Shown here piece by piece: positions 5,941 to 42,254 of a stretch of DNA of 64,000 bases. A program made the position numbers and the translations under genes. The DNA is taken from NCBI GenBank assembly GCA_044892525.1, contig CM097885.1, positions 18,850,001 through 18,914,000 of the forward strand. The letters are read 5' to 3'. Numbering within the stretch: the first letter of the stretch is position 1; every line of letters begins with the position of its first letter. The notes below the pieces were generated by a model that did not search any database, was not told the DNA's origin, and was given only the letters and a program-made list of their open reading frames with translations. Source of the stretch: Schmidtea polychroa (lineage: Eukaryota).

Positions 5941-5971
<31 letters not shown>

Positions 5972-6557
5972 ATAAATACAGTAAGAAATAATCAATATAA
6001 ATATGTTGAGTTGTATACAAAAGTCAAAATATTATTAGTTCCTACGCTTAATTACTATTGATTAAAAAGCGATTTACAGAATCAGCTGTCAGGCAATTTA
6101 TTTGCAATTAAAAAGGACTGATCAAGAAAGTAATAAAAGAGATTACTAATCTTAATAGTGGTGGGTTACTGGTGGTTGAATGATTGAGTGCTGTTACCAG
6201 CGTAACCCAAAATACAACATTGTTTTTTCCGCTTGGTACCCGTTGAGTGATCAACGTTGGTACTGTACCAAGGGTTGAGTACTCGCAAAAAGTGAGCGCA
6301 TCAAAGCACTATAGTTGTCGAGTACTCCGTGGGTTCACGGACTACCGATAGAAGGTGTGTGTCCGATTTCTCAGGTCCCTTTATCAAAATTGTTTTCCCA
6401 ACCTTATGCACAAACTCTCATTTCCCAGGCAATCATAAACTGTACTAGTCATTATTTTATCACTACAAAACGTGCAGTATTTTAACAAGGAACATATTAT
6501 TTGAAGACTACCACCATACATAAAAATACTACAAAACACCTAAAACCGAATATAAGT

Positions 6558-7028
6558 TCAAACAGGCTTATTGGTAGGACTGGCCAATTCCGTCGCATCT
6601 GCTAGTGACGAATTTGCTTGTCGCTCGTATTCGGCCAGTCTAGCTTTCTTCAATTTTTCCCGAATATTTCGGCCTAACCGCTTTCTTGTGGGTTTCTCTT
6701 TCGCGGCCGGGGGGTATATTGCTGCTAGTTCCACGGTCAACGGCCGGATTTGGCTTATGGCGGCTCCGTGAACTACTTGTTCATTGCGTTCGGTTTTTAA
6801 CGCGCGGAGCTGGAGTTTCAGTGCCCGGATCTCCATCTGATCCTGCGCAGCTTGCGTCTGCAGTTGAAGGACCTGCGCCACCTTCTTTTTCATATCCTCG
6901 GGACTAAACCAGGTGCTTTCTAGTTCCCGGCATCGTCCCTTGAGCTTGTCTACTCGTATGCGGAGCTCCTCGGACTGTTTTTGAGCATCTGCTCTATCTC
7001 TTCGCAGATTTTCCAATAGTTTGAACAC
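6558..7028 (-). CDS. LTR-encoded coiled-coil protein with basic NLS-like patch (no genomic ATG; starts at a splice-acceptor-like site)
   Basis: 156-codon ORF; decayed homologs with a shared WFSPE.MK...EIR.LK motif at ~48250, ~56150 and ~61030 imply coding constraint. Confidence 0.7.
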   Translation of the reverse strand: MFKLLENLRRDRADAQKQSEELRIRVDKLKGRCRELESTWFSPEDMKKKVAQVLQLQTQAAQDQMEIRALKLQLRALKTERNEQVVHGAAISQIRPLTVELAAIYPPAAKEKPTRKRLGRNIREKLKKARLAEYERQANSSLADATELASPTNKPV

Positions 7029-7237
7029 TAGATAAATTCAACGATTATATTCTTGCAGCATACTCTTCATTCAATTATAAAATAAAATCAATATTATAAA
7101 TAAACATAGTTTCGGATGTTAAGCACGCAATACACAAGATGATTTATTAAAAGGACTGAAATAATTATCACTAAAATCAAAGTTTAATAAAGTCACAACT
7201 GGATGATAATTTGCAAAAACAAAATTTTGACGATGAG

Positions 7238-7603
7238 TCAGTTCAGTCGCTTGCGAGGCCTTCCCCTCTTCCGCGGGGTTGCCTCGGCCTCTTCTAGGTC
7301 CTCCACGGTTTTTCCCTCTTTTTCTGCTTGGATTTGTAGCTCGATTTTCTTGAGTCGCATCTGAGCTGCTTCTACCTCGATGGCCGCTCGGTCGCGGGCC
7401 TCTTGCAAAAAATCGTTTGTGGGCTCTGTTTTTACCCACGCCGGAGCGTCCGGCTCCGGCCCACTCCTGATTACTGGGCCAAAGTTGTCGAGGTCCAAAC
7501 CCCGATTCCAATCATGGATACGGTGCCATATGTACCGTGTACGGAGTCTGGTAAGCATCTGTCGGTCGACTTCTTCGTGGCTATCGCTGTCAGAGTAGGA
7601 CAT
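7238..7603 (-). CDS. LTR-encoded small protein with a C-terminal AT-hook
   Basis: 121 aa ending TPRKRGRPRKRLN; ATG preceded by TTTTGTAG-AA. Confidence 0.7.
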   Translation of the reverse strand: MSYSDSDSHEEVDRQMLTRLRTRYIWHRIHDWNRGLDLDNFGPVIRSGPEPDAPAWVKTEPTNDFLQEARDRAAIEVEAAQMRLKKIELQIQAEKEGKTVEDLEEAEATPRKRGRPRKRLN

Positions 7604-8111
7604 TTCTACAAAATAATAATCAAGCCCCTCTATACTGATTGAGATACGACGTCAACCACAAGATTTTGTTGACCCTTTTTCCCTTTAAAAAAAAATATTT
7701 TATTTTAAGACTAACATCTATAAGCTTAGGAACAGTGGAATAAGATTTCCTACTTTATCAAAACAAACACAAAAAAAGGAATTTCGTCAAAATTCGTTTG
7801 TTTAAATCAATCATTTCCATTCAAAATTTTTGTTTACCATGAGTGGTAATTTTAATCACTATTTATAAATTTTAATTTATATGTTAATAAAATGTAAAAT
7901 TTTTTTAGATCGTCATTTTTAGGCCACTTAATTCGGGCACGCTGGGGCGACAGGTACTAGCAACGAACTAAGCTCTTCGTCTGCTTACCTTTCCTTCGGT
8001 TGTGCTCGTTATGAGTGGTTTGCTCTGCATACAAGTAATTTATTTAATTTGCTAATTTCTAAATTTCCAGGTGATCGATATCGGATTGGGATATCGATTT
8101 TTTGTAGTTAA

Positions 8112-8470
8112 CTGTAATAATACCAATAATAATAACAATGAAATAACGATACCAATAATAATAATAATAATGATAATAATAATATTAATAATAGCAATGA
8201 TAGTAATAATAATAAGAATAATAATAAATTTTAATAATGGTAATAATAATAATACTAATAATAATAATAACAAGAATAATAATAAATTTTTATAATGGGA
8301 CTGATAATGATGATAATAATAATAATGCTAATTATGATATTCATAATAATGATAATAATAATATAATAATAATAAGAATAAGAATAATAATACTAATAGT
8401 AATGATAATGTTGATACTGCTAATAGTAATAACCAGGGGAATGATCAGGATTATGATAACTATAATTTTA
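8112..8470. repeat. Degenerate (AAT)n microsatellite inside the LTR (copy at ~37996-38354)
   Basis: Direct reading; it generates spurious poly-I/N/L ORFs. Confidence 0.9.
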
Positions 8471-10836
8471 TAATCCCATGTTTTAAAATTATAAATTTAT
8501 GTTCTATGATTTATACTTTGATAATTTTCGATTTATAATTTAAAATTTTTCAATTTAGGGATTTACAATCTTGTAATTTATAATTATAATTTCATATTTT
8601 GAAATTTATACATTCATATTTTATAAGTTATAATTGCTTAACTTATAATTTATAAGTTTATAATCTAAAATTTATACTTTTGTAATTCGTATTTTCGTAC
8701 TTTATAATTTGAAATTTGTAGTCGACGGAATATACTTCTTGCAACTTCCTTTCTATGATCAACATTGTTTTCCGCAGTACTTACAGATTTCCTGGTCCTA
8801 TTTGTGGATTAAACTTCAGGGTTCTAGCGCGTCTATCGCCTATCTGTAACCAATCCTAAGTTGATTTTTATACGAAAAATTGTTTATTACTATCTCTGAT
8901 CAGACTTTCTCCATTAACAATTTACATTTTCAGGATCGACGTGATTTGTACCTAGCTATCGTAATTATTTATAACTTATAGTTTTATAGTTAACAACAAG
9001 AATATTACAACTAAGAGCCTACCCATTTACAAACATTTTAAAGTGGGAACTAGATTTAAAATGTCTATCTTTACTCGGAATCAGCATATCTAGATCAAGT
9101 TATACCTGTACGTATGCCGAATATCTCTCCTATTTCTATTACTTTATCAAAGATCCTTACTACAAAATCTAGTTCGGCATATATCTAAGTATAATTGAAA
9201 TTACCATTATGAATCAACTAGCTACATTAATGTGAGTGTAGAATTGTGTAATTTTAGGTACGAGCTCTACTCAAATTAGAACCTTAGTGTAGAGTTATTG
9301 TTCAGGATTTTAAGTGTTGAGTTTAATTGTATATTACGCAATGAGTCGGGAAGAATATTGCTTCCATGGCCCCACTGTGACCACGTCCACAAACCTTAGT
9401 GTTGTGTGCTAAGTCAACCATTTACGGCTGACCTTAAATAAATACGAAGAGTCAGGCGGAGGGTTTCCTCGACCTAACTCCATGGCAGGACCATGAAGTA
9501 GTTCGACCTCCGGCTGACCCGAACAAAAAGAAATCATATAATAAATATCACTATAATAATGATAATGCGTGTCTGCATGTCCTGTTAATAACGATTTTAA
9601 TAAATTGGATGCAGGACTGAACAACGACGCAGGAATACCAGTACGCCGTTGATCACTCATACATCGCAAAAAATTTTAAGCAAAAAATAAATTTAAAATA
9701 CCATCTATATAATTAAACAATTAATATACAAATAAAGATCAATGCTTACTATCGATTTTGGAAATTTCGTCACAAAAATTTGGCATAAAAGTGATTGATT
9801 GTGACTGAAACGTGTCAGTATATATACCTATTTAGTACACGTGTATGTATTGATGCATTAAAACAAACTCGAATTCTTTTTATTCCAGAATTTTCTATTT
9901 TACGATTTTGCTATTTTTAATGGCAATTTTTGTGCCATAATTTTTGTTTTTATTTTTATATTTTTATTTTTTAATTATTTTTCCTTAATTTTACGTCCAT
10001 GATGGATTTGGAACGGTTCCAGAACATTCTATTTTACTTTTAATTTAATTTTTATTTTAACTGATGTTTTTATGAATTCTTTTTGAGATTTTTTATTTTT
10101 AATACTAATTTATTTATTTTCCTTAACTTTTGTTGTTCTAGATAACTTTTGTGATGGTCATCGCCATTTTTATAGAATGTTCTGGGTTTTTCTGGAATGT
10201 TTTACTGTTTTTATCGTCTCTTAAGTTGTTCGAGTCTGTTTTTTTGTAACTCTGTGTTTATTTGGTTATTTTTGAGTTAGATTTTTGCATCACTTCTTGC
10301 TTTTGTATAATTTTGTTTAATTTCTTTGTTTATGTTTTTGTTGCTTTCTCCTTTAGTTAATATTGTTTATTTGGTGTAGGTTTTAATATTTAACTATACT
10401 TGGTGCTTTTTTACTTGCTGTGTACCTACGCGTTTCAGTCACAATTAGTATTTTGGGTCTAGAAATCAGTTCTAGCCCAACATAAAACACTCGGGGGCCC
10501 ATAAAATTGCGACCCGCAATTTAAATCACAAGATGAAGAAAATTATTTTTCAGAATACTTGCACTATATTACAAGTGCCTACATGCAAATTGGGTCTACG
10601 AGCTACAGGGTCGTGACCTCAATACCCACATACATAAAAAGGCTACTATTATACTACATTCTACGGATGGGTTGAAAGATGAAGAAAAGAACGACCGAGG
10701 TCGGTCCACACGAAAATAAAATTATCATGCTCAAGAATCAATGTTATTAGTCACAATCAGTCTCAGTCTTTGAAATCATGATTGTTTGATAATGTTTTAT
10801 AATGTCATGAAATGTTTATACTGTCGTGATGTCACA

Positions 10837-11823
10837 TTAATAAAATTCGGTTGTTCGGGATCTCGTCTCGATGACGGCTCTGGTTTCAATGTTTGGGGGA
10901 GATTTGAAGTAGCTTGGTTGGTTCGTTGTTTGGACTAGCTGTTCTTCCATTGGGATACGAATACTTCTTGATTGTTCCTTTAGTTTGAGGGTTTTGTTTC
11001 TTTCTTTACTGGAATTGGGTTTGAGTGCAATCAGGCTCAGTATGGTGATGTTTATCATTAGGCTCGCCGCTAATAGGATCAATATTGTGAGGGATTCAGA
11101 CTCTCTCGGTTCTATTACTTTGGGTTTGTTCATAATTTCTTTTAATTGGGTTGTATCCGCCGTTTCTGATTTTTCGGGCTTATTGAATTTGTTTTCTTCT
11201 GAGGTGACAACTTTCTTTATTGCCTCAAGGGTTTTAATCATCTTCTCGGAGTTCGTTGGGTTTTTGTTTATGGTAGTTAGGATTTCCCTTGTCATTTCTT
11301 TCAAGGTTTTCGTTACCTCATTTTTAATGCTGGGTTCCTCTTTGATGATGGAAGTTATTTTTCCTTTCATTTCCTCCAAAGATTTTACTACTGTTTCGCA
11401 ATTGCTTGAACGTCCATAGGCGGTTGCTGTTACCTGTTGTTTTATTTCCTCTAATATTATTACCATCATTCTCATTGCGGCTGGATCTGTTTGGGATTCT
11501 CTCTTTGATTTCTGACTTTGACATTGTTTGGCTAATGTTGCTATCTGGGTTCTGATAACTTTCATTTCTTGTTCTAACATTGTTTTTATTGTCTGAGCCA
11601 TTTGCACTTCCGTCGAACTTTCAGTTGTTTGTGGACATTGCGAACATTGTAACTTGATTTGTTCGCATTCCTCATTGGGTTTTTCGCAGATCGATTTAAA
11701 GCTACTACATGTACTATCTTCTCTGCGATATGGGTATTCTTTCTGGCATCTGATCATTGATTCTTCTGCTTGCAGGATTTTTGGCATTGTCATTATAATC
11801 ATCATCACGATTAGGCTTCTCAT
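10837..11823 (-). CDS. Accessory type-I membrane protein
   Basis: N-terminal signal-like peptide, six-Cys cluster, repeated helical stalk (KTLKEM/KTLEAI/KSLEEM), TM ILILLAASLMINITILSLIAL, cytoplasmic tail. Confidence 0.8.
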   Translation of the reverse strand: MRSLIVMMIIMTMPKILQAEESMIRCQKEYPYRREDSTCSSFKSICEKPNEECEQIKLQCSQCPQTTESSTEVQMAQTIKTMLEQEMKVIRTQIATLAKQCQSQKSKRESQTDPAAMRMMVIILEEIKQQVTATAYGRSSNCETVVKSLEEMKGKITSIIKEEPSIKNEVTKTLKEMTREILTTINKNPTNSEKMIKTLEAIKKVVTSEENKFNKPEKSETADTTQLKEIMNKPKVIEPRESESLTILILLAASLMINITILSLIALKPNSSKERNKTLKLKEQSRSIRIPMEEQLVQTTNQPSYFKSPPNIETRAVIETRSRTTEFY

Positions 11824-11899
11824 CTTTACATATACATATATGTTAATAATAATTACTTGGCTTTATTTACAATTTATTTACACGGTTATTTTGTCTCAT

Positions 11900-12667
11900 T
11901 TATTGGGAGCCACCGACCTCATCCCTTAATTTTACGGGAGGTTCAGGTGCTCGTCTTTTGCTCAACTCGTTCATTCTTATTACTTCGAGTTGCGTTGCTA
12001 TCAACTGTCTCTTTAATTCTGGTATTTCTTGTAATTGCTTCTCTTTACTTTTCCATTTTCTCTGCTTGATGGTTATTGCCGTCTGCAATGCTTGCATGCT
12101 TCGTCGTTTTTGATTTAAGATTCTCCGGTAATTTTCTTTCAACTTCCATTGTTTTTCTGTTTCCTCTCTTTGTTCCTTGATCTCTTCCTTGAGTTTTACA
12201 TTTCTCTTCTCGACTTTTTTACTTTCTCGCACTCTTGTTTTTGCATAAGCATATTGTGCTTCTAACTGCTCGATATAGACTTGGTCGATATTCACAATCT
12301 TTTTCAACTTCCTTGTTTCTGATTTCCAATAATCTTCGATTACTGCCTGAGCTCTCAACTCTACTATCTCTTGTCTCAGGTTTTTATTTTCTGTCTCTTT
12401 TCGTTTCGATTCCTTTATTTTCCTCAAAATTTCTTGCTTGACAGTGTTTATTAATCGTCTTGATTGAACAATATGCTGCCTCAATCTCGTAATCTCTACA
12501 TTTTGATTTGCAATCTTTAATTTGAACAACTTCTTGCTGACTCTCCATTTATTGCTATAATATTTCATCGGTTCTTGTTTGATTGGTATCATATCCTGGT
12601 TTTGTTCAGGTTGGTCGTTTGACTTTCCTTCGTTACTCGTTGATTCTCTTTCTTTTAAATAATTCAT
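11900..12667 (-). CDS. Accessory basic coiled-coil protein
   Basis: Long K/E/R/Q-rich ORF; I place the start at ATG 12667 (MNYLKE), after TTTTTGTAG-AT, rather than at 12685. Confidence 0.75.
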   Translation of the reverse strand: MNYLKERESTSNEGKSNDQPEQNQDMIPIKQEPMKYYSNKWRVSKKLFKLKIANQNVEITRLRQHIVQSRRLINTVKQEILRKIKESKRKETENKNLRQEIVELRAQAVIEDYWKSETRKLKKIVNIDQVYIEQLEAQYAYAKTRVRESKKVEKRNVKLKEEIKEQREETEKQWKLKENYRRILNQKRRSMQALQTAITIKQRKWKSKEKQLQEIPELKRQLIATQLEVIRMNELSKRRAPEPPVKLRDEVGGSQ

Positions 12668-12750
12668 ATCTACAAAAATATACATATCATATTTCCTTTT
12701 GTCTTCTTTTTATTCTGAATTTTTTGGTTTTGTAATTTTTATTTGGTTTT

Positions 12751-12752
<2 letters not shown>

Positions 12753-12805
<53 letters not shown>
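12753..12805 (-). repeat. Poly(A)53 tract on the element sense strand
   Basis: 53 consecutive T on +, 32 nt downstream of the stop of ORF 12838..14436. Confidence 0.95.
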
Positions 12806-12837
12806 CATTCTTATTTACAGGCAACATCTCCCTTCGA

Positions 12838-14436
12838 CTAAATCCATGTTGCGTTATTTTGTTCGTTATTTTCATCGAAGCCTTCATCTGTGGTGACTTC
12901 GGCAGGCTGTGGCACTTGCAACGGGAACGGGTAGAGTGGCATTAATAATATTGGTGGTTGTCTCCTTAACCGATCTATTTCCTCTCGTAGTTCCGTTGAG
13001 ATGTTTATTTCCTCATCCAATAAAAACGTTAATCTACCTTCGTTTTCTATCATTTCGTTTAATTCCTCTTCCAATCGTTGGGTTCTTTCGAGCGTTTTTA
13101 GTTTCTCAATTTCCGCTCTCAAATTTGCTTCATTTTCTTCGAAGCATCGTTTTATTATCTCGGTTTCCTGTTTGGTTTGTTGAATTGTCTTGTCGCACTC
13201 CTCTCTATATTTCGCATTAAGCTCAATCTGGTGCTTCCAATTCACATCCCTTTGGGTGTACATACCTTTATATCCGTTCATCTCTTGATTGGCTTCTTCC
13301 ACTTCGGTTTGTAATTGTCGGATCTGTCGATCTTGGTCTGTCAATTGTTGTTCCCATCTCTTTTCCTGGAATTCATACCTTCTTATTTCTCGAGTCTGTT
13401 TCTTTATGATTCTCTGTCTACCGTCGCTGATCCGCGTCTTGATTCTATGTTCTCTACTCAATCGGCTGATCTCATCTTTTTGGTTTTCTATCGTTTCCCA
13501 TATTTTAAATTCGTCTCTTTCCATCAGTTTTATTGGTAACTGTCTTAACTCCTCTTTGGTCTCTTTCCAATTCTTTTTCCATTTTCGGGCTTGATGCTTG
13601 AGACACTTTTCGGTTTCCTCAGTTTTCTGCTGTCGTTTCCTCCACTCTACTTCCTCTTCTTCTCGCTGTGCAGCTCTTGTTTCGTAAAATTCTTGGTCTG
13701 CTTTTCGTAATCGCAGTTGTTCCTTGCTACTGATTTTCCAATAGAGCACTTGAGTTTGACTTCCTAGGTATTTATACTTCCATTTCTGGGCTTGTATCTT
13801 TATTTGTGTGTTAATTCGCTCTAATACGTTATCTCTAACAATTGGTTCTCTATGCGGTGTTCTCCTCCCTTGCCCTCTGACTTCGTTTAGGGTCTTTTTG
13901 CATCTGTCCCATTTTTCTTTCATCATTGCGCATTTGCCCTTTACTTCTTCTAGTTCGGCCTTGTAATTCCGTATTTGATGTTCGTGACTATCATTCTGCC
14001 TTGTCTGGAGGGTTTCGTACTTTAGTTTCCATTGTTGCGCTTGTAGTTTTATTCGTTCCGTTTTACGCTGTTCCTCCTCGTATTGTTCCTTTGCTTCCCT
14101 AATTTGTGCCTTCTGCATTATTATCTCTCCGCATAACCCAACTATCTCCATAATCCGCTGAGTTCGTAAATTCGAGAGCTCTTCCTCCAATTCTTGGTAT
14201 GTTGAGGTATTTCTCACATCCTCGGTTAATTCCTCTACCTGTTTCATCCACTCCTCCTTTGTTGCTAGTGCTTCCGCCTTCTCCGCTTCTAATTCTTGTT
14301 GCTTTTTCTCATACATGGTTTTGTACATTTCTATTTCTCTCTTTACTCTTTCTGCTTCGTATGTTTGTATGATGGATTTGTACTGTTCGAGTTGTTGCAT
14401 CTCGGTTTCCACATAGGTTTGTGATTCTTTATTCAT
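12838..14436 (-). CDS. Accessory long coiled-coil protein
   Basis: 532 aa, E/K/Q/R-rich heptads; internally repeated Q(A)xxWKxKY motif. Confidence 0.8.
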   Translation of the reverse strand: MNKESQTYVETEMQQLEQYKSIIQTYEAERVKREIEMYKTMYEKKQQELEAEKAEALATKEEWMKQVEELTEDVRNTSTYQELEEELSNLRTQRIMEIVGLCGEIIMQKAQIREAKEQYEEEQRKTERIKLQAQQWKLKYETLQTRQNDSHEHQIRNYKAELEEVKGKCAMMKEKWDRCKKTLNEVRGQGRRTPHREPIVRDNVLERINTQIKIQAQKWKYKYLGSQTQVLYWKISSKEQLRLRKADQEFYETRAAQREEEEVEWRKRQQKTEETEKCLKHQARKWKKNWKETKEELRQLPIKLMERDEFKIWETIENQKDEISRLSREHRIKTRISDGRQRIIKKQTREIRRYEFQEKRWEQQLTDQDRQIRQLQTEVEEANQEMNGYKGMYTQRDVNWKHQIELNAKYREECDKTIQQTKQETEIIKRCFEENEANLRAEIEKLKTLERTQRLEEELNEMIENEGRLTFLLDEEINISTELREEIDRLRRQPPILLMPLYPFPLQVPQPAEVTTDEGFDENNEQNNATWI

Positions 14437-14518: not shown

Positions 14519-15697
14519 TTATTGATCGGCGTAGCGGAATCCTTTGATTCGCTGCGCAATCCTCTGTCTGCACATCGGACATTCCTTTACTTTTCTACTA
14601 CATGTGGCACATGCGATCAAATGTCCGCATGGCATATGAATAACTTCTACACTCCTCTCCCAACACATAGTACATTTGATATCTCGTAAGATAGCTGTTT
14701 TGACCATTGATTCTTCTTTTATTTTTGTTTCAGGTTTTTCTCTATACTGGGTTATCGCTCTGATCATATCGTACGTTGTTGTTGGTATATGTACATTTTT
14801 CTGTAGTTTCTCTCTAATCATGTTCTTTGCCCTTGTCGTGCCTATTCCGGCTGCTTTCAACGCTCTGCACATGTTGGGTTTGTCTACCACTTCGTCAACC
14901 TCTTCCTCTGTTACTAGTACTTCCGGATATTCGGTTTCTTGTTCGTTGTGATATAGGCACCATGCTTGATGTCTAATTTCTGGTATGCCTTCTTCCGGTA
15001 ATCTCTGTTGGCTTTCGCATCTTTCACACTTTAGTATTTGATTTTCTGTTAGGTAGAACCCTCTTATTGCTAATTCAGGTCCTCTCGTATCATCTCCGAA
15101 CGTTTTCATTCTATTATCTGCTATTTGCGTGAGGAATTCCCCTTCACAAGTTGGAACATACTCATCAACGATTCTGGTTATCGCGATGCTCATTTTCCCT
15201 CCTTTTTCGTCTTCAGTTTTCAATTTCTCCAAGGCTTCGTATTTGATTTCCGGTTTGTTGTGTACATCAAATCCCAGTACGAATAGACAAGTTGGGAATC
15301 GTCTACGATGTTCCTCCTTTGGGTGTTCTCCTTTTTTCCATTCTGCTAATTTCCCTTTACAGAAACGACATGTTACTTGATCGGGTATCTCTGGTTTTCC
15401 GGAGAAGAAAAATCCGTCGCGTGCTAGCGCTCGGCTCTGTTCCTTGGTGAAAATGGTCTGATGTTCAAATGACAGATATCTCTGGTTCTCACATCTGAAT
15501 TGTTCATTATCTCCCAGTTTCAAATTTTCGTGTACCCAATTATAATCGTTTCCCATTCTCCGATAATATGCGTAACTACTTGGTTTTGTTTTGCTGACTT
15601 CCGCATCCTTCACTCTTTCTCTAGGTGGCATATTGTCCTCTTCCTCTCTCATTGTGATCGTTTTCTTTCGGATATTCGGTCTCTCTTGATTAATCAT
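14519..15697 (-). CDS. Inhibitor-of-apoptosis (IAP) protein: BIR, degenerate BIR, C-terminal RING
   Basis: LARDGFFF..DQVTCRFC..LAEW...EH....PTC (BIR); RMKTF...LAIRGFY...CERC...H...C; CTMCWER..VIHMPCGHL.ACATC....CPMCR (IAP-type RING). Confidence 0.92.
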   Translation of the reverse strand: MINQERPNIRKKTITMREEEDNMPPRERVKDAEVSKTKPSSYAYYRRMGNDYNWVHENLKLGDNEQFRCENQRYLSFEHQTIFTKEQSRALARDGFFFSGKPEIPDQVTCRFCKGKLAEWKKGEHPKEEHRRRFPTCLFVLGFDVHNKPEIKYEALEKLKTEDEKGGKMSIAITRIVDEYVPTCEGEFLTQIADNRMKTFGDDTRGPELAIRGFYLTENQILKCERCESQQRLPEEGIPEIRHQAWCLYHNEQETEYPEVLVTEEEVDEVVDKPNMCRALKAAGIGTTRAKNMIREKLQKNVHIPTTTYDMIRAITQYREKPETKIKEESMVKTAILRDIKCTMCWERSVEVIHMPCGHLIACATCSRKVKECPMCRQRIAQRIKGFRYADQ

Positions 15698-15837: not shown

Positions 15838-17262
15838 CTATCGTATTTCTATTGTTGGTCCTTCCTCATCTAGTTCGATTAGGAAGAATATAGTGTCCTT
15901 TTCTATGTAGGACCCTTCATTAAATTGGTATAGCTGCATAAACTCTGCTACTCCTACCGCAGGATTAACCTCTGTAATCGGTTTATTCCCTGCTGGACTG
16001 GATGCTCGAAAACACATTATATGTGTCTTTTTTGCTCCTAAGAGAGATATTTTTAATCTATGTCGGAATGGCCATGCTATTAGGTCGTCAAAATCTCCTT
16101 TACAAATCTGCATATATATGGACATGCACCGATCTTTAAACTTTCCTTCACCATTTGGAAACCATCTCAATTTCATCTTGTATCCATGTTTCTTGGCGTA
16201 GAATGGTTTGCTCACTATCGTTGTCTGGATTCCTTGCTTTGCTTGCTCCATTATTTCCGTTATTCCTTGGATTTTCCACATGTATGGCAGTATTGGTAGT
16301 TCCTCTGTTGTCAGTTCCTTTGTAGTCCATTTGGTTTGTAATTTAGTTACTTCGACTAATTTGTCGTCTAATTTCAACATCCTTTGTGTTACGGCTTCTC
16401 TCGTATTTTCGAAGCTTTCCTGTGAGCTCAGCATTTCTTTTATCATGATTTTATGTGATTTGAGTTCGTCTTTGACGTCTTCAATTGCTCTTGCTGTTAA
16501 CTCTATTGCTCTCATCATCTTTTGCATGTGCTCGAATGTATTCTCCTCCACATGCTTCTTCATTTCTTCTGCTGGTAATTGTGCTCTACAGTCGAATGTC
16601 ACCATTGGGCATTTTATTGCTTTTCTCGTGCATATCTCCCAATGTTCATTTAATCTGACGTTGTTAATTTCTCCACACTCGTTTGGGCATTTCCCTGTAT
16701 ATTCGTCGCAAATCCGTCTTTCTACTGCGTTTCGATGTTCCATTTCGATTTCTCTCCAATTAGCAGTTTCTCCGCAAAATTCGCATTTTTCCGTTCGCGC
16801 TTCGCATTCCCCTTTATGTTTGGTTTTCTCTTTTCGTAAAAACTTTACCGTGCATGCTTCGCATTCCGATTCCAGATATTCGCATACGTCTGTATGGGCT
16901 CTTAACTCCTTTACTCGGCCTGTCCATTCGCATGACCTTTGGGTGCATCTTATTTTCACTTCTCTGATTTCTCGGTTCATTGCTCTATCCGGTATCGTAC
17001 CAGTGGGAACCAACTTAAATGCTTCTCCACATCCTGGACAAGTTTCTCGCTTTAGTCTGGCTAATCTTATATCACACCCTCGGCACAATCTACACCCGCA
17101 TCGAGTTTGACTTGCTCCAATTAATAATCTTCTACATGCTGTATCGGCACATAATAATCTCTCTTCGAACTCGTCCGGCTCGGCTTGGTATTTTCTCATC
17201 AACTCATAGTTAATCTTTTGTTCCTCTGCTTCTCTCCGGTTTTCCTCTGCTTTGTTTTGCAT
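15838..17262 (-). CDS. TRAF-family protein (RING-like, TRAF zinc fingers, coiled coil, MATH)
   Basis: Cys-rich N-terminus; C..GC/SC.W.G...L..H...C zinc fingers; MATH motifs WKI...SKPFY..GYKMKLR.FPNG...GDFDDLIAWPF...DTIFF. Confidence 0.92.
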   Translation of the reverse strand: MQNKAEENRREAEEQKINYELMRKYQAEPDEFEERLLCADTACRRLLIGASQTRCGCRLCRGCDIRLARLKRETCPGCGEAFKLVPTGTIPDRAMNREIREVKIRCTQRSCEWTGRVKELRAHTDVCEYLESECEACTVKFLRKEKTKHKGECEARTEKCEFCGETANWREIEMEHRNAVERRICDEYTGKCPNECGEINNVRLNEHWEICTRKAIKCPMVTFDCRAQLPAEEMKKHVEENTFEHMQKMMRAIELTARAIEDVKDELKSHKIMIKEMLSSQESFENTREAVTQRMLKLDDKLVEVTKLQTKWTTKELTTEELPILPYMWKIQGITEIMEQAKQGIQTTIVSKPFYAKKHGYKMKLRWFPNGEGKFKDRCMSIYMQICKGDFDDLIAWPFRHRLKISLLGAKKTHIMCFRASSPAGNKPITEVNPAVGVAEFMQLYQFNEGSYIEKDTIFFLIELDEEGPTIEIR

Positions 17263-17351
17263 TCTACAATGATGATTTTTAATCTTGGGATTTCTACTTG
17301 ATTATAACTCTATTTATTTACAGGATTATTTACATTTCACTCCTTTCTCTC

Positions 17352-17807: not shown

Positions 17808-17955
17808 TCCTATTTATAATACATGGTCATCATACTTGTTTTTGATTTTTCTACATATTGTTTTAATTTACTACTTTTATTTTGTACATACTACTACTAT
17901 TATCACTACTTTTATCATTTCATTTATACATTATTTACAACAACTCCTCCTCTCG

Positions 17956-32022: not shown

Positions 32023-33113
32023 TATTTCTTGACACAAAATTGTTATATTGGTTGACTCTGAACTATTTCCTTCCTCGTCTGATGATTCAATGTCACTTAT
32101 CGGATCTAGTTCGGTTCGTTTAAGATCGTCGCTGTTCTCAAATTCGTTTGTTAAACTGTCTGATTCAAATACTGTTTCTACTGATGCTGGCTTCCTGTGT
32201 AGTTTTCTGTTGGTCTTGGCCTTTTGTATCTCTTCCTTTTCCAATAAACTGAGGTTTCCTTTACTTTTTCGCCTCGTTCGGTTAGCTATGCTATCAATTT
32301 TTCCTCCTTTTAATATCCTTTGCTAAATTTTCTACTTTGTCAATCGAGCTCGATGTTTTCTAAGTATTTTTCTCGCTTTAATCTTTACGATTCTCTAACT
32401 CTTCTTGGATTTGGTTTTATTAATTTCCTTGATTCTTCGCTTCTAATTGATTTCTCTATATCTCTTGATTTCTATTGCTTTCTTGATTTCTTTGATTTCT
32501 TTCTGAATTGTTTGCTTTATTCTAAAATAATTAACACCTCTAGTACATATCATAAATTCTCTTTGTTAAACCCTTCATTTACTTTCCCTTTTCCCTTTAT
32601 TTTACTGTCCCTTCGCTTCAAATTTTCTAGCTTTTCTACACTTCTCGCTATTCGCCCCATTTTGATTTTAAGTTGATTTTAAATTATCTATAACTCGTAT
32701 CAATTATCTATATAGTCGTATCAATTATCTATCCCTTTTATTATTATCATAGAAATATAATATTAATCACATAAATATCAAAATAAACATATCATTAATA
32801 AATAAAATTCAATAATTCAACTACTATCTATTCGTTCGCTTTTCCCCATCCAAAAACTGGTTTAATTTTCGCTTGCGCCGGCGCTTTATCATAATTCTCC
32901 TCTACTCATTACATATTTATCGCACTTAATCTATTTCAGTTTAATCAATTTCATAGTTAATCATTGATGCTTTGGTTCGCGCGACCTCTACATCCACCTT
33001 TATTTACCATCGGCTCTCTGGCCGGTTTGTTCAACTCCTTTATTTTCATTTAAATCATTTCACTCAATTACCATCGGCTCCTTGGCCGGTTTAATCAACT
33101 CATTTTAATCTCA

Positions 33114-34834: not shown

Positions 34835-35317
34835 TTATGGGAGGTATATTACAATTTTCTCTCTAACATTCGTATCGCATACGTCGCATCGTTTAATTTT
34901 CTCTGCGCAATTCTCGCAGTAGCATAAATGACCACATGGAATCGTCATTACTCGTATTTCATTGGTTCTGCATATGAAGCATTTTCTAAAATCTTTAACT
35001 TGATGTTCGATTGCTTCTTTAATTTCTTCCTCGATCGTTTCCATTTTTATCATTATCTCCTGCCATTTGATGTTAAATTTGGCATTGTCTAATCGTAAAT
35101 TTTGAAGTTGATAAACTCTTTTAGTGGTCAATTCTGCATTAGGTGTCGCTATTTTCATCATTACGCATATTTCCTCAGCTTGCGGTCTTGGATTCAAGCT
35201 CATCTCATCTTGGATTTTTATCAACTGGTCCGCTTTGCGATTTAGCCGTTGTAACGAATTGTGTGTTAAATCTACGAATTTTTCGAGTCTCTTTGTAATG
35301 TAGCCGGTTGATTCCAT
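34835..35317 (-). CDS. Upstream accessory coiled-coil plus IAP-type RING protein
   Basis: CFICRTNEIRVMTIPCGHLCYCENC....CDVC...KIVIYLP at the C-terminus; lies between the PBS and gag. Confidence 0.85.
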   Translation of the reverse strand: MESTGYITKRLEKFVDLTHNSLQRLNRKADQLIKIQDEMSLNPRPQAEEICVMMKIATPNAELTTKRVYQLQNLRLDNAKFNIKWQEIMIKMETIEEEIKEAIEHQVKDFRKCFICRTNEIRVMTIPCGHLCYCENCAEKIKRCDVCDTNVREKIVIYLP

Positions 35318-36016: not shown

Positions 36017-36034
36017 ATCCCGGCTGAGCCCCCA
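36017..36034 (-). promoter_or_regulatory. Primer binding site, tRNA-Pro-like
   Basis: Minus strand TGGGGGCTCAGCCGGGAT matches the canonical tRNA-Pro PBS TGGGGGCTCGTCCGGGAT at 16/18; 8 nt from the 5' LTR. Confidence 0.85.
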
Positions 36035-36441
36035 AATTTGTATGGTGGGTTACTGGTGGTTGAATGATTGAGTGCTGTTACCAGCGTAACCCAAAATACA
36101 ACATTGTTTTTTCCGCTTGGTACCCGTTGAGTGATCAACGTTGGTACTGTACCAAGGGTTGAGTACTCGCAAAAAGTGAGCGCATCAAAGCACTATAGTT
36201 GTCGAGTACTCCGTGGGTTCACGGACTACCGATAGAAGGTGTGTGTCCGATTTCTCAGGTCCCTTTATCAAAATTGTTTTCCCAACCTTATGCACAAACT
36301 CTCATTTCCCAGGCAATCATAAACTGTACTAGTCATTATTTTATCACTACAAAACGTGCAGTATTTTAACAAGGAACATATTATTTGAAGACTACCACCA
36401 TACATAAAAATACTACAAAACACCTAAAACCGAATATAAGT

Positions 36442-36912
36442 TCAAACAGGCTTATTGGTAGGACTGGCCAATTCCGTCGCATCTGCTAGTGACGAATTTG
36501 CTTGTCGCTCGTATTCGGCCAGTCTAGCTTTCTTCAATTTTTCCCGAATATTTCGGCCTAACCGCTTTCTTGTGGGTTTCTCTTTCGCGGCCGGGGGGTA
36601 TATTGCTGCTAGTTCCACGGTCAACGGCCGGATTTGGCTTATGGCGGCTCCGTGAACTACTTGTTCATTGCGTTCGGTTTTTAACGCGCGGAGCTGGAGT
36701 TTCAGTGCCCGGATCTCCATCTGATCCTGCGCAGCTTGCGTCTGCAGTTGAAGGACCTGCGCCACCTTCTTTTTCATATCCTCGGGACTAAACCAGGTGC
36801 TTTCTAGTTCCCGGCATCGTCCCTTGAGCTTGTCTACTCGTATGCGGAGCTCCTCGGACTGTTTTTGAGCATCTGCTCTATCTCTTCGCAGATTTTCCAA
36901 TAGTTTGAACAC
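36442..36912 (-). CDS. LTR-encoded coiled-coil protein (5' LTR copy)
   Basis: Identical translation to 6558..7028. Confidence 0.7.
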   Translation of the reverse strand: MFKLLENLRRDRADAQKQSEELRIRVDKLKGRCRELESTWFSPEDMKKKVAQVLQLQTQAAQDQMEIRALKLQLRALKTERNEQVVHGAAISQIRPLTVELAAIYPPAAKEKPTRKRLGRNIREKLKKARLAEYERQANSSLADATELASPTNKPV

Positions 36913-37121
36913 TAGATAAATTCAACGATTATATTCTTGCAGCATACTCTTCATTCAATTATAAAATAAAATCAATATTATAAATAAACATAGTTTCGGA
37001 TGTTAAGCACGCAATACACAAGATGATTTATTAAAAGGACTGAAATAATTATCACTAAAATCAAAGTTTAATAAAGTCACAACTGGATGATAATTTGCAA
37101 AAACAAAATTTTGACGATGAG

Positions 37122-37487
37122 TCAGTTCAGTCGCTTGCGAGGCCTTCCCCTCTTCCGCGGGGTTGCCTCGGCCTCTTCTAGGTCCTCCACGGTTTTTCCC
37201 TCTTTTTCTGCTTGGATTTGTAGCTCGATTTTCTTGAGTCGCATCTGAGCTGCTTCTACCTCGATGGCCGCTCGGTCGCGGGCCTCTTGCAAAAAATCGT
37301 TTGTGGGCTCTGTTTTTACCCACGCCGGAGCGTCCGGCTCCGGCCCACTCCTGATTACTGGGCCAAAGTTGTCGAGGTCCAAACCCCGATTCCAATCATG
37401 GATACGGTGCCATATGTACCGTGTACGGAGTCTGGTAAGCATCTGTCGGTCGACTTCTTCGTGGCTATCGCTGTCAGAGTAGGACAT
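37122..37487 (-). CDS. LTR-encoded AT-hook protein (5' LTR copy)
   Basis: Identical translation to 7238..7603. Confidence 0.7.
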   Translation of the reverse strand: MSYSDSDSHEEVDRQMLTRLRTRYIWHRIHDWNRGLDLDNFGPVIRSGPEPDAPAWVKTEPTNDFLQEARDRAAIEVEAAQMRLKKIELQIQAEKEGKTVEDLEEAEATPRKRGRPRKRLN

Positions 37488-39627
37488 TTCTACAAAATAA
37501 TAATCAAGCCCCTCTATACTGATTGAGATACGACGTCAACCACAAGATTTTGTTGACCCTTTTTCCCTTTAAAAAAAAATATTTTATTTTAAGACTAACA
37601 TCTATAAGCTTAGGAACAGTGGAATAAGATTTCCTACTTTATCAAAACAAACACAAAAAAAGGAATTTCGTCAAAATTCGTTTGTTTAAATCAATCATTT
37701 CCATTCAAAATTTTTGTTTACCATGAGTGGTAATTTTAATCACTATTTATAAATTTTAATTTATATGTTAATAAAATGTAAAATTTTTTTAGATCGTCAT
37801 TTTTAGGCCACTTAATTCGGGCACGCTGGGGCGACAGGTACTAGCAACGAACTAAGCTCTTCGTCTGCTTACCTTTCCTTCGGTTGTGCTCGTTATGAGT
37901 GGTTTGCTCTGCATACAAGTAATTTATTTAATTTGCTAATTTCTAAATTTCCAGGTGATCGATATCGGATTGGGATATCGATTTTTTGTAGTTAACTGTA
38001 ATAATACCAATAATAATAACAATGAAATAACGATACCAATAATAATAATAATAATGATAATAATAATATTAATAATAGCAATGATAGTAATAATAATAAG
38101 AATAATAATAAATTTTAATAATGGTAATAATAATAATACTAATAATAATAATAACAAGAATAATAATAAATTTTTATAATGGGACTGATAATGATGATAA
38201 TAATAATAATGCTAATTATGATATTCATAATAATGATAATAATAATATAATAATAATAAGAATAAGAATAATAATACTAATAGTAATGATAATGTTGATA
38301 CTGCTAATAGTAATAACCAGGGGAATGATCAGGATTATGATAACTATAATTTTATAATCCCATGTTTTAAAATTATAAATTTATGTTCTATGATTTATAC
38401 TTTGATAATTTTCGATTTATAATTTAAAATTTTTCAATTTAGGGATTTACAATCTTGTAATTTATAATTATAATTTCATATTTTGAAATTTATACATTCA
38501 TATTTTATAAGTTATAATTGCTTAACTTATAATTTATAAGTTTATAATCTAAAATTTATACTTTTGTAATTCGTATTTTCGTACTTTATAATTTGAAATT
38601 TGTAGTCGACGGAATATACTTCTTGCAACTTCCTTTCTATGATCAACATTGTTTTCCGCAGTACTTACAGATTTCCTGGTCCTATTTGTGGATTAAACTT
38701 CAGGGTTCTAGCGCGTCTATCGCCTATCTGTAACCAATCCTAAGTTGATTTTTATACGAAAAATTGTTTATTACTATCTCTGATCAGACTTTCTCCATTA
38801 ACAATTTACATTTTCAGGATCGACGTGATTTGTACCTAGCTATCGTAATTATTTATAACTTATAGTTTTATAGTTAACAACAAGAATATTACAACTAAGA
38901 GCCTACCCATTTACAAACATTTTAAAGTGGGAACTAGATTTAAAATGTCTATCTTTACTCGGAATCAGCATATCTAGATCAAGTTATACCTGTACGTATG
39001 CCGAATATCTCTCCTATTTCTATTACTTTATCAAAGATCCTTACTACAAAATCTAGTTCGGCATATATCTAAGTATAATTGAAATTACCATTATGAATCA
39101 ACTAGCTACATTAATGTGAGTGTAGAATTGTGTAATTTTAGGTACGAGCTCTACTCAAATTAGAACCTTAGTGTAGAGTTATTGTTCAGGATTTTAAGTG
39201 TTGAGTTTAATTGTATATTACGCAATGAGTCGGGAAGAATATTGCTTCCATGGCCCCACTGTGACCACGTCCACAAACCTTAGTGTTGTGTGCTAAGTCA
39301 ACCATTTACGGCTGACCTTAAATAAATACGAAGAGTCAGGCGGAGGGTTTCCTCGACCTAACTCCATGGCAGGACCATGAAGTAGTTCGACCTCCGGCTG
39401 ACCCGAACAAAAAGAAATCATATAATAAATATCACTATAATAATGATAATGCGTGTCTGCATGTCCTGTTAATAACGATTTTAATAAATTGGATGCAGGA
39501 CTGAACAACGACGCAGGAATACCAGTACGCCGTTGATCACTCATACATCGCAAAAAATTTTAAGCAAAAAATAAATTTAAAATACCATCTATATAATTAA
39601 ACAATTAATATACAAATAAAGATCAAT

Positions 39628-39710
39628 GCTTACTATCGATTTTGGAAATTTCGTCACAAAAATTTGGCATAAAAGTGATTGATTGTGACTGAAACGTGTC
39701 AGTATATATA
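39628..39710 (-). promoter_or_regulatory. Candidate LTR core promoter and first splice donor
   Basis: Minus strand: TATATATA (39710-39703), Inr-like TCAGTC/TCACTT downstream, then GATA|GTAAGC donor at 39633. The TATA block is retained in relics at ~45615 and ~53684. Confidence 0.5.
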
Positions 39711-42254
39711 CCTATTTAGTACACGTGTATGTATTGATGCATTAAAACAAACTCGAATTCTTTTTATTCCAGAATTTTCTATTTTACGATTTTGCTATTT
39801 TTAATGGCAATTTTTGTGCCATAATTTTTGTTTTTATTTTTATATTTTTATTTTTTAATTATTTTTCCTTAATTTTACGTCCATGATGGATTTGGAACGG
39901 TTCCAGAACATTCTATTTTACTTTTAATTTAATTTTTATTTTAACTGATGTTTTTATGAATTCTTTTTGAGATTTTTTATTTTTAATACTAATTTATTTA
40001 TTTTCCTTAACTTTTGTTGTTCTAGATAACTTTTGTGATGGTCATCGCCATTTTTATAGAATGTTCTGGGTTTTTCTGGAATGTTTTACTGTTTTTATCG
40101 TCTCTTAAGTTGTTCGAGTCTGTTTTTTTGTAACTCTGTGTTTATTTGGTTATTTTTGAGTTAGATTTTTGCATCACTTCTTGCTTTTGTATAATTTTGT
40201 TTAATTTCTTTGTTTATGTTTTTGTTGCTTTCTCCTTTAGTTAATATTGTTTATTTGGTGTAGGTTTTAATATTTAACTATACTTGGTGCTTTTTTACTT
40301 GCTGTGTACCTACGCGTTTCAGTCACAATTAGTATTTTGGGTCTAGAAATCAGTTCTAGCCCAACAATAGTTGCTACCAGGAGAATTTTGTATAGCAGAA
40401 ATTTAGAAATTCAGAAATAAAACAAGCTATATCAGCTTTGTGTAAAACTTACAGAATTTTAACCATAAGGTTACTTAATTCTACTTTGTTTTAATTTATC
40501 AATTAATTGCACAACCCGACCACGAGAAGCAGTATTTCGGCCTGTCTTAAATATTGGATTAAAAGTTTAGAAAGGAACTATATTAGGAAACGTTAGATTG
40601 TCCTTGATCTAGGCGATAGCGCAAACATCGGGAAACCCCTCCATCTTCAACTTAACTTAATATACAGTACTGTGAGCAATTGGATCCAGCATTTGTTTCT
40701 TATTCTAAGGACTGTTTGTACAACCAATTTCTTTGCTTTATAGAATCAGCGGCATTTTTGGGTGTATTACATATATTGTGCATATTGAAAAAAATTATCT
40801 TATCTTCGTTAATTCATATTTATTATTTATTACACGCACATATATTATATATCTTTGGAATCTGATATATCAGTCTGTGTTAGGAAAATATCTATCCCAC
40901 CAGATCAGAACCTAAAAGTATCTGTCTTCTGTTCGAAACCGCGCATAATTATTTATTTGATCACTAAACGCTCGTTACAAGCGATGTTGGTACTGCAATT
41001 AAGCGGTTATCTGTCTGCAAAAGTTGAGCCTCATCATAAGGTATCTTAATGCCAGGACTCGCCCTTGGGTTTGTTGGTCGCTTAGGGGCGTGTAATTTTA
41101 TTGTCAAATGTGTTAGGGGTAATTGTATGTATTAAATCGACTTCTTCCTAAACACCTTCATGATTATTGCACTTAAGAACATATATGTTCCCATGACGAC
41201 GACCATGTTGGTACTGTGCACAATGGTTGAAAATTAATGAGCAGGTGAGCTCTATTGCTAAAACTACTCTTCATTGTATTTTTCTTACAGGTTCTGGACT
41301 GCCGATAGAAGGTCTTACGTCATTATTCATTATCTATTTCTATTGTTGGATCATTGAAATGCCTTCATTTAACTATGGTTCTCATTTCTGGATGTTTTCT
41401 ATTGTTTTCTTCAAAAATTTGAGCAGGGATCGGCCCTTATTACTAAGTTAATAAATGTAGTTTCATACTTCTCATAAAATTTGGGCAGGGATCTGCTTGT
41501 ATTTCCAACTCCAACCTATGTTCTACTAAAACGAACCCGTCCTATACTATCTATATTTAAACAAAGCTTCAAACTGTCCAAAATGAATCTATGTTCTCCC
41601 ATCGACCCTATCCCTAACCATATCCTCTAAACGATATGCCAGAATGGTCAACCATCCACTGTCCATCAGTCTTTCGACCGATGGTTTACGGACGTATCCC
41701 AAACCTGGGGGCATCAAAGTATAAAAATTATGACAAAACAAAATTCAACCATAATTATTTATTCAAAGTTTTATAAACGAAATAATCAAAACACCAAAAT
41801 TAACTAAAACTAAATTCAACTTAAAATTTTATTAAATCATGAAATTACATTATACTTTACATAAAATTACATTTCACATAAAATTACCAAAATAAAATCC
41901 AACTTACCGCGATTGCATAAACCGAAAACTGAGAGCGCCTAGCAATGTCTGGTAAATAAGGTTGATTTCAGATTAAACTAGTTTTTTTTACTGAATTTTC
42001 AATCAGTATTTATACTGATTTGATTGCACGCCTACGCATTCTCTGCTACTATATCCCATTAACAGGCGATAAATTTGAATTACTATGAATCCATGCATAA
42101 GTGTGTGCAATTATTTATTTTTTAATTTAACTGATTTAATTAATTAATTATTTAATATTTTATTAATTTTAATAATTTAATTTTATAAATTTTATAATTT
42201 AAATAATTTTGGTTAATTTTATTTTTGTTTTTATTAATTTAAACACTTTGATTC

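Follow-up and report, generated by a model that had tools for sequence, protein, structure and literature searches.

Planarian Burro retroelements are the closest described relatives of the element analyzed here, a long terminal repeat (LTR) retroelement of 34,208 bp that occupies positions 6159-40366, on the minus strand, of a 64,000-nucleotide stretch of the Schmidtea polychroa genome (contig CM097885.1, positions 18,850,001 to 18,914,000; "the window" hereafter means this whole stretch). Burro-1 of Schmidtea mediterranea, earlier GYPSM1 (Jurka 2007) and named by Grohme et al. 2018, is described as exceeding 30 kb, being present in thousands of copies and carrying a first open reading frame (ORF1) of 4,873 aa (Arkhipova and Yushenova 2019, PMC6431247). 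According to the same description, ORF1 encodes in order Gag, three CCHC knuckles, MATH_TRAF_C, SUMO-like, BCL-2, an in-frame envelope (env), protease (PR), dUTPase-like, reverse transcriptase (RT), RNase H (RH), integrase (IN) and ankyrin parts, and a BIR domain is also present. The env matches mononegavirus glycoproteins, the BCL-2, SUMO-like and dUTPase-like parts were recognized by HHpred, and the authors suggest that Burro elements are maybe integrated proviruses, a "tinkerer" meddling with apoptosis and ubiquitination (PMC6431247). BURRO1 RNA has been reported in gut (intestine) cells and rises after RNA interference (RNAi) against smedwi-2 (Li et al. 2021, PMC8532177), and transposon activity under PIWI control is already gauged in planarians with BURRO1 as the marker. 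Burro elements of more than 30 kb have also been named as an obstacle to genome assembly (Ivankovic et al. 2024, PMC11410931).

The layout of such an element and its cell-death-control genes are already known, having been in print between 2007 and 2019. A first-pass annotation of this DNA had proposed a giant, potentially infectious Ty3/gypsy virus with a cell-death and NF-kB control toolkit, perhaps a Burro relative, and had named an existing annotation of the same architecture as what would remove its novelty. Such an annotation exists, together with the provirus and apoptosis-ubiquitin hypothesis (PMC6431247), and the domain order fits the printed account of Burro-1. The earlier interpretation is partly supported: right in outline, overreaching on NF-kB and Bcl-2, and not novel. 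Our own reading, which we hold at a probability of about 0.88, is that the locus carries a giant Ty3/gypsy endogenous retrovirus of the Burro type, complete in length and very young as an insertion, in a planarian-type host, with an envelope and cargo apparently kept by selection. What the present comparison of sequences appears to add is that the cargo stays open in other copies, that most of the element is under purifying selection, and that a 9-mer close to the stop codons recurs in relatives about 42% identical; these additions would make the reading of an active enveloped retrovirus with useful cargo considerably stronger.

The element and its giant open reading frame

Self-comparison of the window with blastn returned a single long direct repeat, 6159-10482 against 36043-40366, with 100% identity over 4,324 bp, 0 mismatches and 0 gaps, enclosing an internal region of 25,560 bp.

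36043..40366, minus strand: 5' LTR (element orientation), 4,324 bp, TG...CA, identical to 6159-10482
6159..10482, minus strand: 3' LTR, 4,324 bp, TG...CA, with two small open reading frames (ORFs; 111 and 121 aa) likewise found in the 5' LTR
6155..6158 and 40367..40370, no strand: 4-bp target-site duplication ATAG, flanking the LTR termini
36017..36034, minus strand: primer-binding site (PBS), 18 nt, complement of the tRNA-Pro(TGG) 3' end plus CCA
17956..32322, minus strand: giant ORF, 4,788 codons from stop to stop; the first ATG, at 32022, gives 4,688 aa
31036..31920, minus strand: Gag, with a Retrotrans_gag/Ty3 capsid at aa 135-293 and three CCHC knuckles at aa 365-429 (Pfam)
28351..28785, minus strand: MATH/TRAF-C domain inside the polyprotein, aa 1180-1324 (Pfam E 6e-29; best solved relative TRAF3, E 2e-29)
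26668..27255, minus strand: candidate Bcl-2-like region, aa 1690-1885, with the BH2-like motif EQGGWRSFIE (weak: PDB E 0.5; two-sequence profile E 0.026)
24643..26667, minus strand: in-frame envelope, aa 1886-2560, with its own Met, a signal-like segment, a Monjiviricetes-type fusion glycoprotein and a transmembrane (TM) segment at aa 2467-2485 (Pfam E 9e-68)
21385..24216, minus strand: PR (DTG), RT (YIDD), RNase H and integrase (H2C2 and DDE), by Pfam, solved-structure match and alignment
20146..20409, minus strand: ankyrin repeats, aa 3972-4059 (Ank_2 E 7e-8)
17959..19455, minus strand: C-terminal membrane module, with a signal-like segment at aa 4290-4308, a Cys-rich ectodomain with a beta-sandwich, a TM segment at aa 4678-4696 and a tail of about 90 aa

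Features that define Metaviridae (Ty3/gypsy) are present, namely paired TG...CA LTRs, a 4-bp duplication, a tRNA PBS and the order PR-RT-RH-IN, and the total and internal lengths agree with the size given for Burro elements (more than 30 kb, internal region up to about 25 kb). The PBS reads TGGGGGCTCAGCCGGGAT on the minus strand (36034-36017), is separated from the 5' LTR by 8 nt and is perfectly complementary to the final 15 nt of a tRNA-Pro(TGG) gene with CCA added, as determined by pattern search in the same genome with the tRNA called by ARAGORN. Every long open frame between the LTRs lies on the minus strand; eight internal ATG-initiated ORFs (151-4,688 aa) and the two of each LTR make ten distinct ORFs. 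The complete element of the first-pass annotation, with its target-site duplication, PBS, matching LTRs and ten ORFs, therefore stands, and so does its assignment to the Ty3/gypsy type, given the PR-RT-RH-IN order and a best solved relative of RT-RH-IN that is the yeast Ty3 Gag-Pol structure (7q5b, E 1.5e-119). The catalytic DTG and YIDD motifs and the integrase residues D, D and E are invariant in an alignment with 13 relatives (14 sequences), and parts needed for LTR retrotransposition are present: LTRs, tRNA-Pro PBS and gag-PR-RT-RH-IN with intact DTG, YIDD and DDE.

The envelope family PF24664 was detected by Pfam at aa 1886-2496, ahead of the PR at aa 2703; fusion glycoproteins of this type occur in mononegavirus-like RNA viruses. 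Position 1 of the profile aligns at Met1886, which is followed by a hydrophobic signal-like segment; aa 2467-2485 form a strong anchor, and the 14-sequence alignment has more than 14 invariant cysteines. A sequence search returned no solved relative. Because PF24664 starts at Met1886 with a signal-like segment and an anchor, the envelope is complete, but it lies in frame between gag and pol. The envelope of the first-pass annotation is thus present, not as a separate ORF but within the giant one, as in the published elements. A separate spliced env mRNA is disfavoured, as no AG occurs within 3 nt before M1886, which is weak evidence.

The arrangement extends well beyond this element. Its RT-IN region matched 111 proteins of 2,633-8,379 aa, and in each of the 13 closest relatives (48-52% RT-IN identity; ENA/JGI records) PF24664 and PR-RT-IN belong to a single protein. 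Ankyrin and ubiquitin-like parts occur in one of the 13 and Ig domains in two; MATH and BIR were found by Pfam in none. Relatives on metagenome contigs have different downstream ORFs, and those at 9043-10374 of locus L037 and 10617-12107 of locus L041 encode an RNase_T/DEDD exonuclease, with no IAP or TRAF. Since the in-frame PF24664 is found in all 13 relatives while the cargo differs, the single gag-env-pol frame marks a wider clade and the cell-death cargo is particular to the present lineage.

The stretch before the envelope carries EPYILEQGGWRSFIE, which aligns weakly with the BH2 region of Bcl-xL. A single-sequence search reached E of about 0.5, Bcl-xL making up 35 of the 37 matches listed. 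A relative (P0004) has the same order of Bcl-2-like part, signal and envelope at 24% identity and keeps GGWxxFIE; the two-sequence profile built with it reached E 0.026, and all 60 matches listed were Bcl-xL or Bcl-2. No Pfam match was obtained for the region at E<=1, its single-sequence AlphaFold2 model was unusable (pLDDT 38.8), and the best score in the ESM Atlas was 0.80, to unrelated clusters. An exhaustive HMMER search over 1.84 billion representatives gave three matches at E<=1e-3, all spurious repeat proteins (Ank, Ig, TPR). Of the features of the Bcl-2 family, BH motifs on an eight-helix bundle, the analysis thus recovered a BH2-like GGWxxF motif only, and the Bcl-2-like module of the first-pass annotation, weakly supported by this motif and the PDB and profile matches, is not confirmed as stated.

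Elsewhere in the polyprotein, the single-sequence AlphaFold2 model of the C-terminal module (mean pLDDT 48.7) contains about 90 confidently placed residues that form a generic beta-sandwich (best Z 8.7, no specific family), plus a TM helix, and the module had no sequence match in the PDB and none in the ESM Atlas. A PDB search of aa 2790-3016 returned only RT N-termini, and the ankyrin region matched only generic or designed repeat proteins.

Several further observations concern the element and its surroundings. The LTR open frames on the coding strand lie at 36442-36921 (159 codons stop to stop) and 37122-37487 (121 aa), recur in the other LTR and appear charged and coiled-coil-like. The RING ORF is separated from the giant ORF by 2.8 kb of untranslated sequence, which contains a 131-bp tandem duplication (33114-33428, 99.5% identity). 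The coding strand is very A-rich across 10483-36042 (AT skew of the plus strand -0.24 to -0.49). The same tRNA-Pro PBS beside TGTTGG LTR ends serves other LTR element families (loci L009-L012); ARAGORN found no tRNA gene in these four PBS-bearing loci, nor any in the window. The 16-mer AATCCCGGCTGAGCCC, one base off the version in the present PBS, has 2,219 occurrences in the genome, and a 22-nt tRNA-Pro 3'-end pattern has 2,308 matches with at most one mismatch. tRNA-Pro(TGG) genes form long head-to-tail arrays with a 475-bp period at C1:130.90-130.95 Mb and 133.14 Mb (L013-L015). An inverted repeat of about 750 bp (2141-2885 and 3538-4276, 97.6% identity) is found a short way upstream of the element and is probably another transposon, with smaller related pieces at 2503-2610, 3801-3912 and 5853-5964. 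Two more inverted-repeat pairs beyond the element (45239-45622/53720-54084 and 1420-1694/63195-63469, 77-78% identity) are old copies of other repeats.

Copies of the element and selection among them

With a 1-kb LTR probe, the 781-Mb assembly gave 2,878 first-look candidates, and the 40 that were scored were all 99-100% identical; these form 17 pairs, 16 of them spaced 29.8-30.3 kb. Across probes the first-look candidates ranged from 2,878 to 8,237, all scored matches being at least 99% identical. In genome scans whose counts include the window's own copy, all 105 scored matches to the IAP gene were open at 99% identity or more, the 532-aa ORF was open in 80 of 81, and the giant ORF was stop-free over its first 2,600 residues in 17 of 18 copies, the whole frame being open at 4,784-4,791 aa in 15 of these 18. 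Twenty other copies, taken from among the best IAP matches, had accessory regions 98.1-99.7% identical, with all six downstream ORFs at full length in 19 and the 532-aa ORF shortened to 485 aa in the remaining one. In all, the genome holds at least a hundred near-identical copies. The absence of the cargo ORFs from other copies, which the first-pass annotation had named as refuting it, was not seen.

LTR pairs within three copies were 100%, 99.92% (two indels) and 100% identical over 2.5 kb, and the LTRs of different copies differed by 1.4-2.2%. As LTRs are identical or nearly so within a copy and differ between copies, each copy is young and drawn from a diversified pool. Two irregular forms were also seen: one LTR pair is only 23.4 kb apart, and contigs of run X8 (of unknown type) join 31268/32693 straight to 36043, the inner LTR edge, which suggests deletion derivatives without the leader and the RING ORF.

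Selection was described among copies more than 99% identical whose own LTR pairs are identical. For the giant ORF, three copies chosen by LTR similarity, not by protein, aligned over 14,367 nt with 0 indels and 244 distinct substitutions (211 transitions against 33 transversions), of which 67 were nonsynonymous (N) and 177 synonymous (S). The ratio of the proportions of N and S changes at their respective sites (pN/pS, with simple Nei-Gojobori site counts throughout) was 0.10, and the shifted frames gave 1.54 and 1.48. Domain figures, which rest on the same three copies, were 3 N : 36 S for the envelope (pN/pS 0.02, the strongest constraint of all parts), 6 N : 23 S for the Bcl-2-like region (0.07), 9 N : 52 S from PR to IN, 16 N : 25 S for the C-terminal membrane module (0.17) and 13 N : 21 S for aa 440-1179. 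Decay after insertion would give N and S changes in proportion to their sites; this was not seen, and most differences therefore seem to have arisen in lineages that kept the envelope, the enzymes and most of the cargo working. Judged from these substitution patterns, the envelope, the enzymes and most of the cargo are under purifying selection among copies, and we conclude that the family is probably replicating now, or was until very recently, with the envelope as part of its cycle.

Such a cycle may be pictured as follows. If the differences among copies arose in replicating lineages, propagation would need the envelope, that is, infection from cell to cell or from animal to animal. Infection could run, for example, from differentiated tissue, the reported site of BURRO1 RNA, into those stem cells from which the next generation arises. 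The IAP, TRAF/MATH, RING and Bcl-2-like modules would act on host ubiquitin and cell-death signalling and keep the producing cell alive.

It is rather unlikely, in our judgement, that the element is instead a strictly intracellular retrotransposon, whose envelope and membrane modules are relics or non-infectious and which spreads within the stem-cell or germ lineage. The element is known from sequence alone, not from particles or transmission; BURRO1 RNAi or RT inhibitors did not rescue the smedwi-2 phenotype or benefit smedwi-2(RNAi) animals, a result that says nothing for infectivity (PMC8532177); and placing an envelope between gag and pol in their own frame would be an unusual route to a membrane protein. 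This same envelope is, however, the most constrained part of the polyprotein; in relatives about 31-40% identical it still has its Met, signal-like segment and anchor, together with more than 14 invariant cysteines, and its in-frame arrangement is kept in all 13 close relatives. With selection on the envelope, the Bcl-2-like part, the second membrane module and most accessory genes, the printed provirus and tinkerer suggestion becomes the testable claim that an active envelope-dependent retrovirus resides in an animal that renews its whole body from stem cells.

Accessory genes and the word that follows their stop codons

Seven separate ORFs accompany the giant one, one upstream and six downstream.

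34835..35317, minus strand: upstream ORF, 160 aa, coiled coil and C-terminal RING (zf-C3HC4_3 E 5e-12)
17352..17807, minus strand: ORF of 151 aa, coiled coil, no family; open in 20 of 20 copies
15838..17262, minus strand: TRAF-like ORF of 474 aa, with a Cys-rich N-terminus, zf-TRAF (E 1.3e-6), a coiled coil and MATH (E 8e-27)
14519..15697, minus strand: IAP ORF of 392 aa, with a BIR at aa 77-140 (E 1e-15) and a C-terminal RING at aa 340-382 (zf-C3HC4_3 E 3e-12)
12838..14436, minus strand: ORF of 532 aa, highly charged coiled coil (sequence features)
11900..12685, minus strand: ORF of 261 aa, highly charged coiled coil (sequence features)
10837..11823, minus strand: ORF of 328 aa, predicted type I membrane protein with a signal-like N-terminus, a coiled coil and a TM segment at aa 260-278

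The 392-aa ORF has the BIR and C-terminal RING that define the IAP family, and the 474-aa ORF has the zinc fingers, coiled coil and C-terminal MATH of the TRAF family, in which a RING is optional; Pfam found no RING in it, and its Cys-rich N-terminus was noticed by eye. The 532-aa ORF had no PDB match under E 0.5. The IAP, TRAF/MATH, ankyrin and RING modules announced by the first-pass annotation were all recovered by Pfam. Its NF-kB toolkit was not, the ankyrin part matching generic repeats only; a more cautious description is signalling by TRAF and IAP in ubiquitination and cell death. When the host genome was scanned in six frames, it gave 0 matches to the Rel-homology domain PF00554, and prokaryotic control genomes likewise gave 0, so that the scan had no positive control. 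A review of planarian immunity lists TRAF, TAK1, p38 and JNK components (PMC7958881).

For the six downstream ORFs, we compared 18-20 sequences each, counting each variant once and using simple Nei-Gojobori site counts. Pooled, they showed 80 N : 66 S (pN/pS 0.29, binomial p 2e-12), with 0.66 and 1.09 in the shifted frames. Individual values were significant for the TRAF (0.10), IAP (0.26), 532-aa (0.29) and 261-aa (0.28) ORFs and not for the 151-aa ORF (0.39). These values bear on the proposal that the IAP, TRAF, RING and coiled-coil ORFs are neutral passengers from host mRNAs, of no use to the element. Relatives from other sources carry different downstream ORFs, none of them an IAP or TRAF and two an RNase_T, the A(53) run past one cassette resembles a retro-copied poly(A) tail, and the last ORF has a pN/pS of 1.62, all of which would suit passengers. 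Yet four of the ORFs are significantly constrained, against 0.66 and 1.09 in the shifted frames, and the cargo ORFs are open in nearly all copies examined, and we consider the proposal improbable.

The ORFs are closely packed, with spacers of 76-152 nt, and their ends share a short word.

17931..17939, minus strand: TGTAAATAA, 16 nt past the giant-ORF stop; also at 17326-17334, 17314-17322, 12811-12819, 11874-11882 and 11863-11871
12753..12805, minus strand: A(53) run, 5 nt past the motif that follows the 532-aa ORF

The 9-mer TGTAAATAA lies 16-18 nt past the stops of the giant, 151-aa, 532-aa and 261-aa ORFs and is doubled in two of these spacers; words that differ slightly from it stand after the TRAF, IAP and RING ORFs. 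The window holds nine exact matches, six of them just past stop codons of the element, and none of 100 shuffles reached nine. We also found the 9-mer 17-19 nt past the giant-ORF stop in three of five divergent relatives on metagenome contigs (L039, L040 and L041, of L037-L041; about 41-44% identical in pol) and past three further ORFs of these five relatives, the surrounding spacer sequence not being conserved; L038 is without it. The word contains UGUANAUA, which we take to be the PUF/Pumilio consensus, and also an AAUAA-type hexamer. A reading as a CFIm-type UGUA poly(A) enhancer was rejected, since planarian poly(A) sites are reported to be without a UGUA element (PMC5068929). The A run varies in length from 34 to 59 in 15 of the 17 copies where the motif was found; its origin may lie in a retro-copied poly(A) tail or in a microsatellite. 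At the other end of the cistrons, six of the seven separate ORFs have a (T/A)AG that ends 0-3 nt ahead of the ATG, whereas across the whole element 32% of ATGs are so preceded. Schmidtea uses spliced-leader trans-splicing (PMC10899757).

The UGUAAAUAA word past each stop may be a cistron-end control signal, either a PUF/Pumilio-type site or a 3'-end or re-initiation signal, and, being shared with relatives about 42% identical, it gives a concrete way into the question of how eight cistrons are expressed from one retroelement. We tentatively raise the possibility that these elements are currently replicating, envelope-dependent flatworm retroviruses whose 25-kb coding region works as a small viral operon, with an endoplasmic reticulum (ER)-threaded polyprotein, selected cistrons, UGUAAAUAA closers and AG openers. 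The polyprotein would be threaded through the ER membrane as a flavivirus polyprotein is: the hydrophobic segment past the Bcl-2-like part, in the position of a Bcl-2 tail anchor, would double as the envelope signal, aa 2467-2485 would be the anchor, and a second signal and anchor pair at the C-terminus would deliver a second glycoprotein. The selection-kept TRAF, IAP and coiled-coil cistrons would follow, each closed by UGUAAAUAA 16-18 nt past its stop and read by a host PUF/Pumilio-type or 3'-end factor, and the AG found 0-3 nt ahead of the ATG may act as an acceptor in splicing or in spliced-leader addition.

The element among known systems

Several results weigh against the reading of a Burro-type endogenous retrovirus kept by selection. 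The likeness to Burro-1 to -4 and GYPSM1 was judged by printed description and not by nucleotide alignment; the ORF1 of Burro-1 has 4,873 aa, against 4,784-4,791 aa here (PMC6431247); and Pfam gave no dUTPase-like or SUMO-like match at E<=1 in aa 1325-2000 or aa 2790-3016. The Bcl-2 likeness comes down to the BH2-like motif. No purine run that could serve as a polypurine tract occurs in the 40 nt preceding the 3' LTR. Constraint is also uneven: the last ORF, the 328-aa membrane protein, shows 19 N : 3 S (its pN/pS of 1.62 is not significant and gives no sign of constraint), the MATH domain in the polyprotein (3 N : 1 S) and the ankyrin repeats (4 N : 2 S) show no significant constraint, and the IAP figure is biased by the choice of accessory-region copies from the best IAP matches. 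No listed sequencing run is recorded as RNA, and contigs over 16401-36400 (runs X1, X2 and X4, RNA only by guess, and X8) contained no canonical GT..AG-type joint, X1 contigs covering all 30 bins of this interval, and this joint search is uninformative on expression or splicing. To these must be added the failed rescue of smedwi-2 animals mentioned above.

Some of these points would suit a separate, undescribed giant gypsy lineage that is Burro-like by convergence or through common captured modules, notably the comparison by description, the ORF1 lengths (4,788 against 4,873 aa) and the Pfam result for the dUTPase-like and SUMO-like parts. The domain order nevertheless agrees point by point with that printed, as do the length above 30 kb and the thousands of candidates (PMC6431247), and we regard a separate origin as very improbable. 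Giant repeats are hard to assemble and collapse can yield identical LTRs, but we find it hardly credible that misassembly, or the nesting of host genes with a normal gypsy element, produced this structure, which is found again at 20 of 20 other loci whose flanks are distinct (98.1-99.7% identity); three further copies align over the whole 14,367-nt ORF without an indel, and the element has its own target duplication.

The Burro-type retrovirus that we favour shares with Burro-1 a length above 30 kb, multi-kb LTRs, a Gag with three CCHC knuckles, a MATH_TRAF_C in ORF1, a BCL2-like motif and thousands of copies, as well as an envelope in frame before PR, ankyrin repeats after IN, and BIR and RING accessory modules; the dUTPase-like and SUMO-like parts of Burro-1 (PMC6431247) were not found here by Pfam. 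In the portions of PMC6431247, PMC8532177 and PMC11410931 that our comparison covered, there is no mention of the tRNA-Pro PBS, the 9-mer, selection figures or the C-terminal module; Grohme et al. 2018, Repbase and the supplements lie outside this comparison. The Burro-like element of Dugesia (Girardia) tigrina likewise has a giant ORF1 with Gag, in-frame envelope and pol, and accessory ORFs, but it has two CCHC knuckles, a MATH in an upstream ORF and a midasin-like part, whereas the present element has three knuckles and a MATH inside the giant ORF (PMC6431247).

The giant polyproteins of public assemblies (P0042-P0056; loci L037-L041) resemble the present one in their 48-52% RT-IN identity, in PF24664 placed before PR in the same ORF and in their downstream ORFs, and several have TGTAAATAA 17-19 nt past stops. 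They differ in that none has MATH, BIR or TRAF, and some have Ig domains, ankyrin before PR, or an RNase_T ORF. Large DNA viruses (baculovirus, entomopoxvirus, herpesvirus) carry IAPs and Bcl-2 homologues that presumably block host cell death. The element described here has a BIR and RING protein and a candidate Bcl-2-like module as they do, here on a retroelement and known from sequence only. Insect errantiviruses such as gypsy and ZAM combine a Ty3/gypsy core with an acquired viral fusion protein and are proposed to infect the germline from the soma under PIWI control; their env is a separate spliced ORF3 of the baculovirus F type, in elements of 7-8 kb with no cell-death cargo. The present element shares with errantiviruses the Ty3/gypsy core and the fusion protein, and differs from them in carrying its envelope in frame between gag and pol, in its length of 34,208 bp and in its cell-death cargo.

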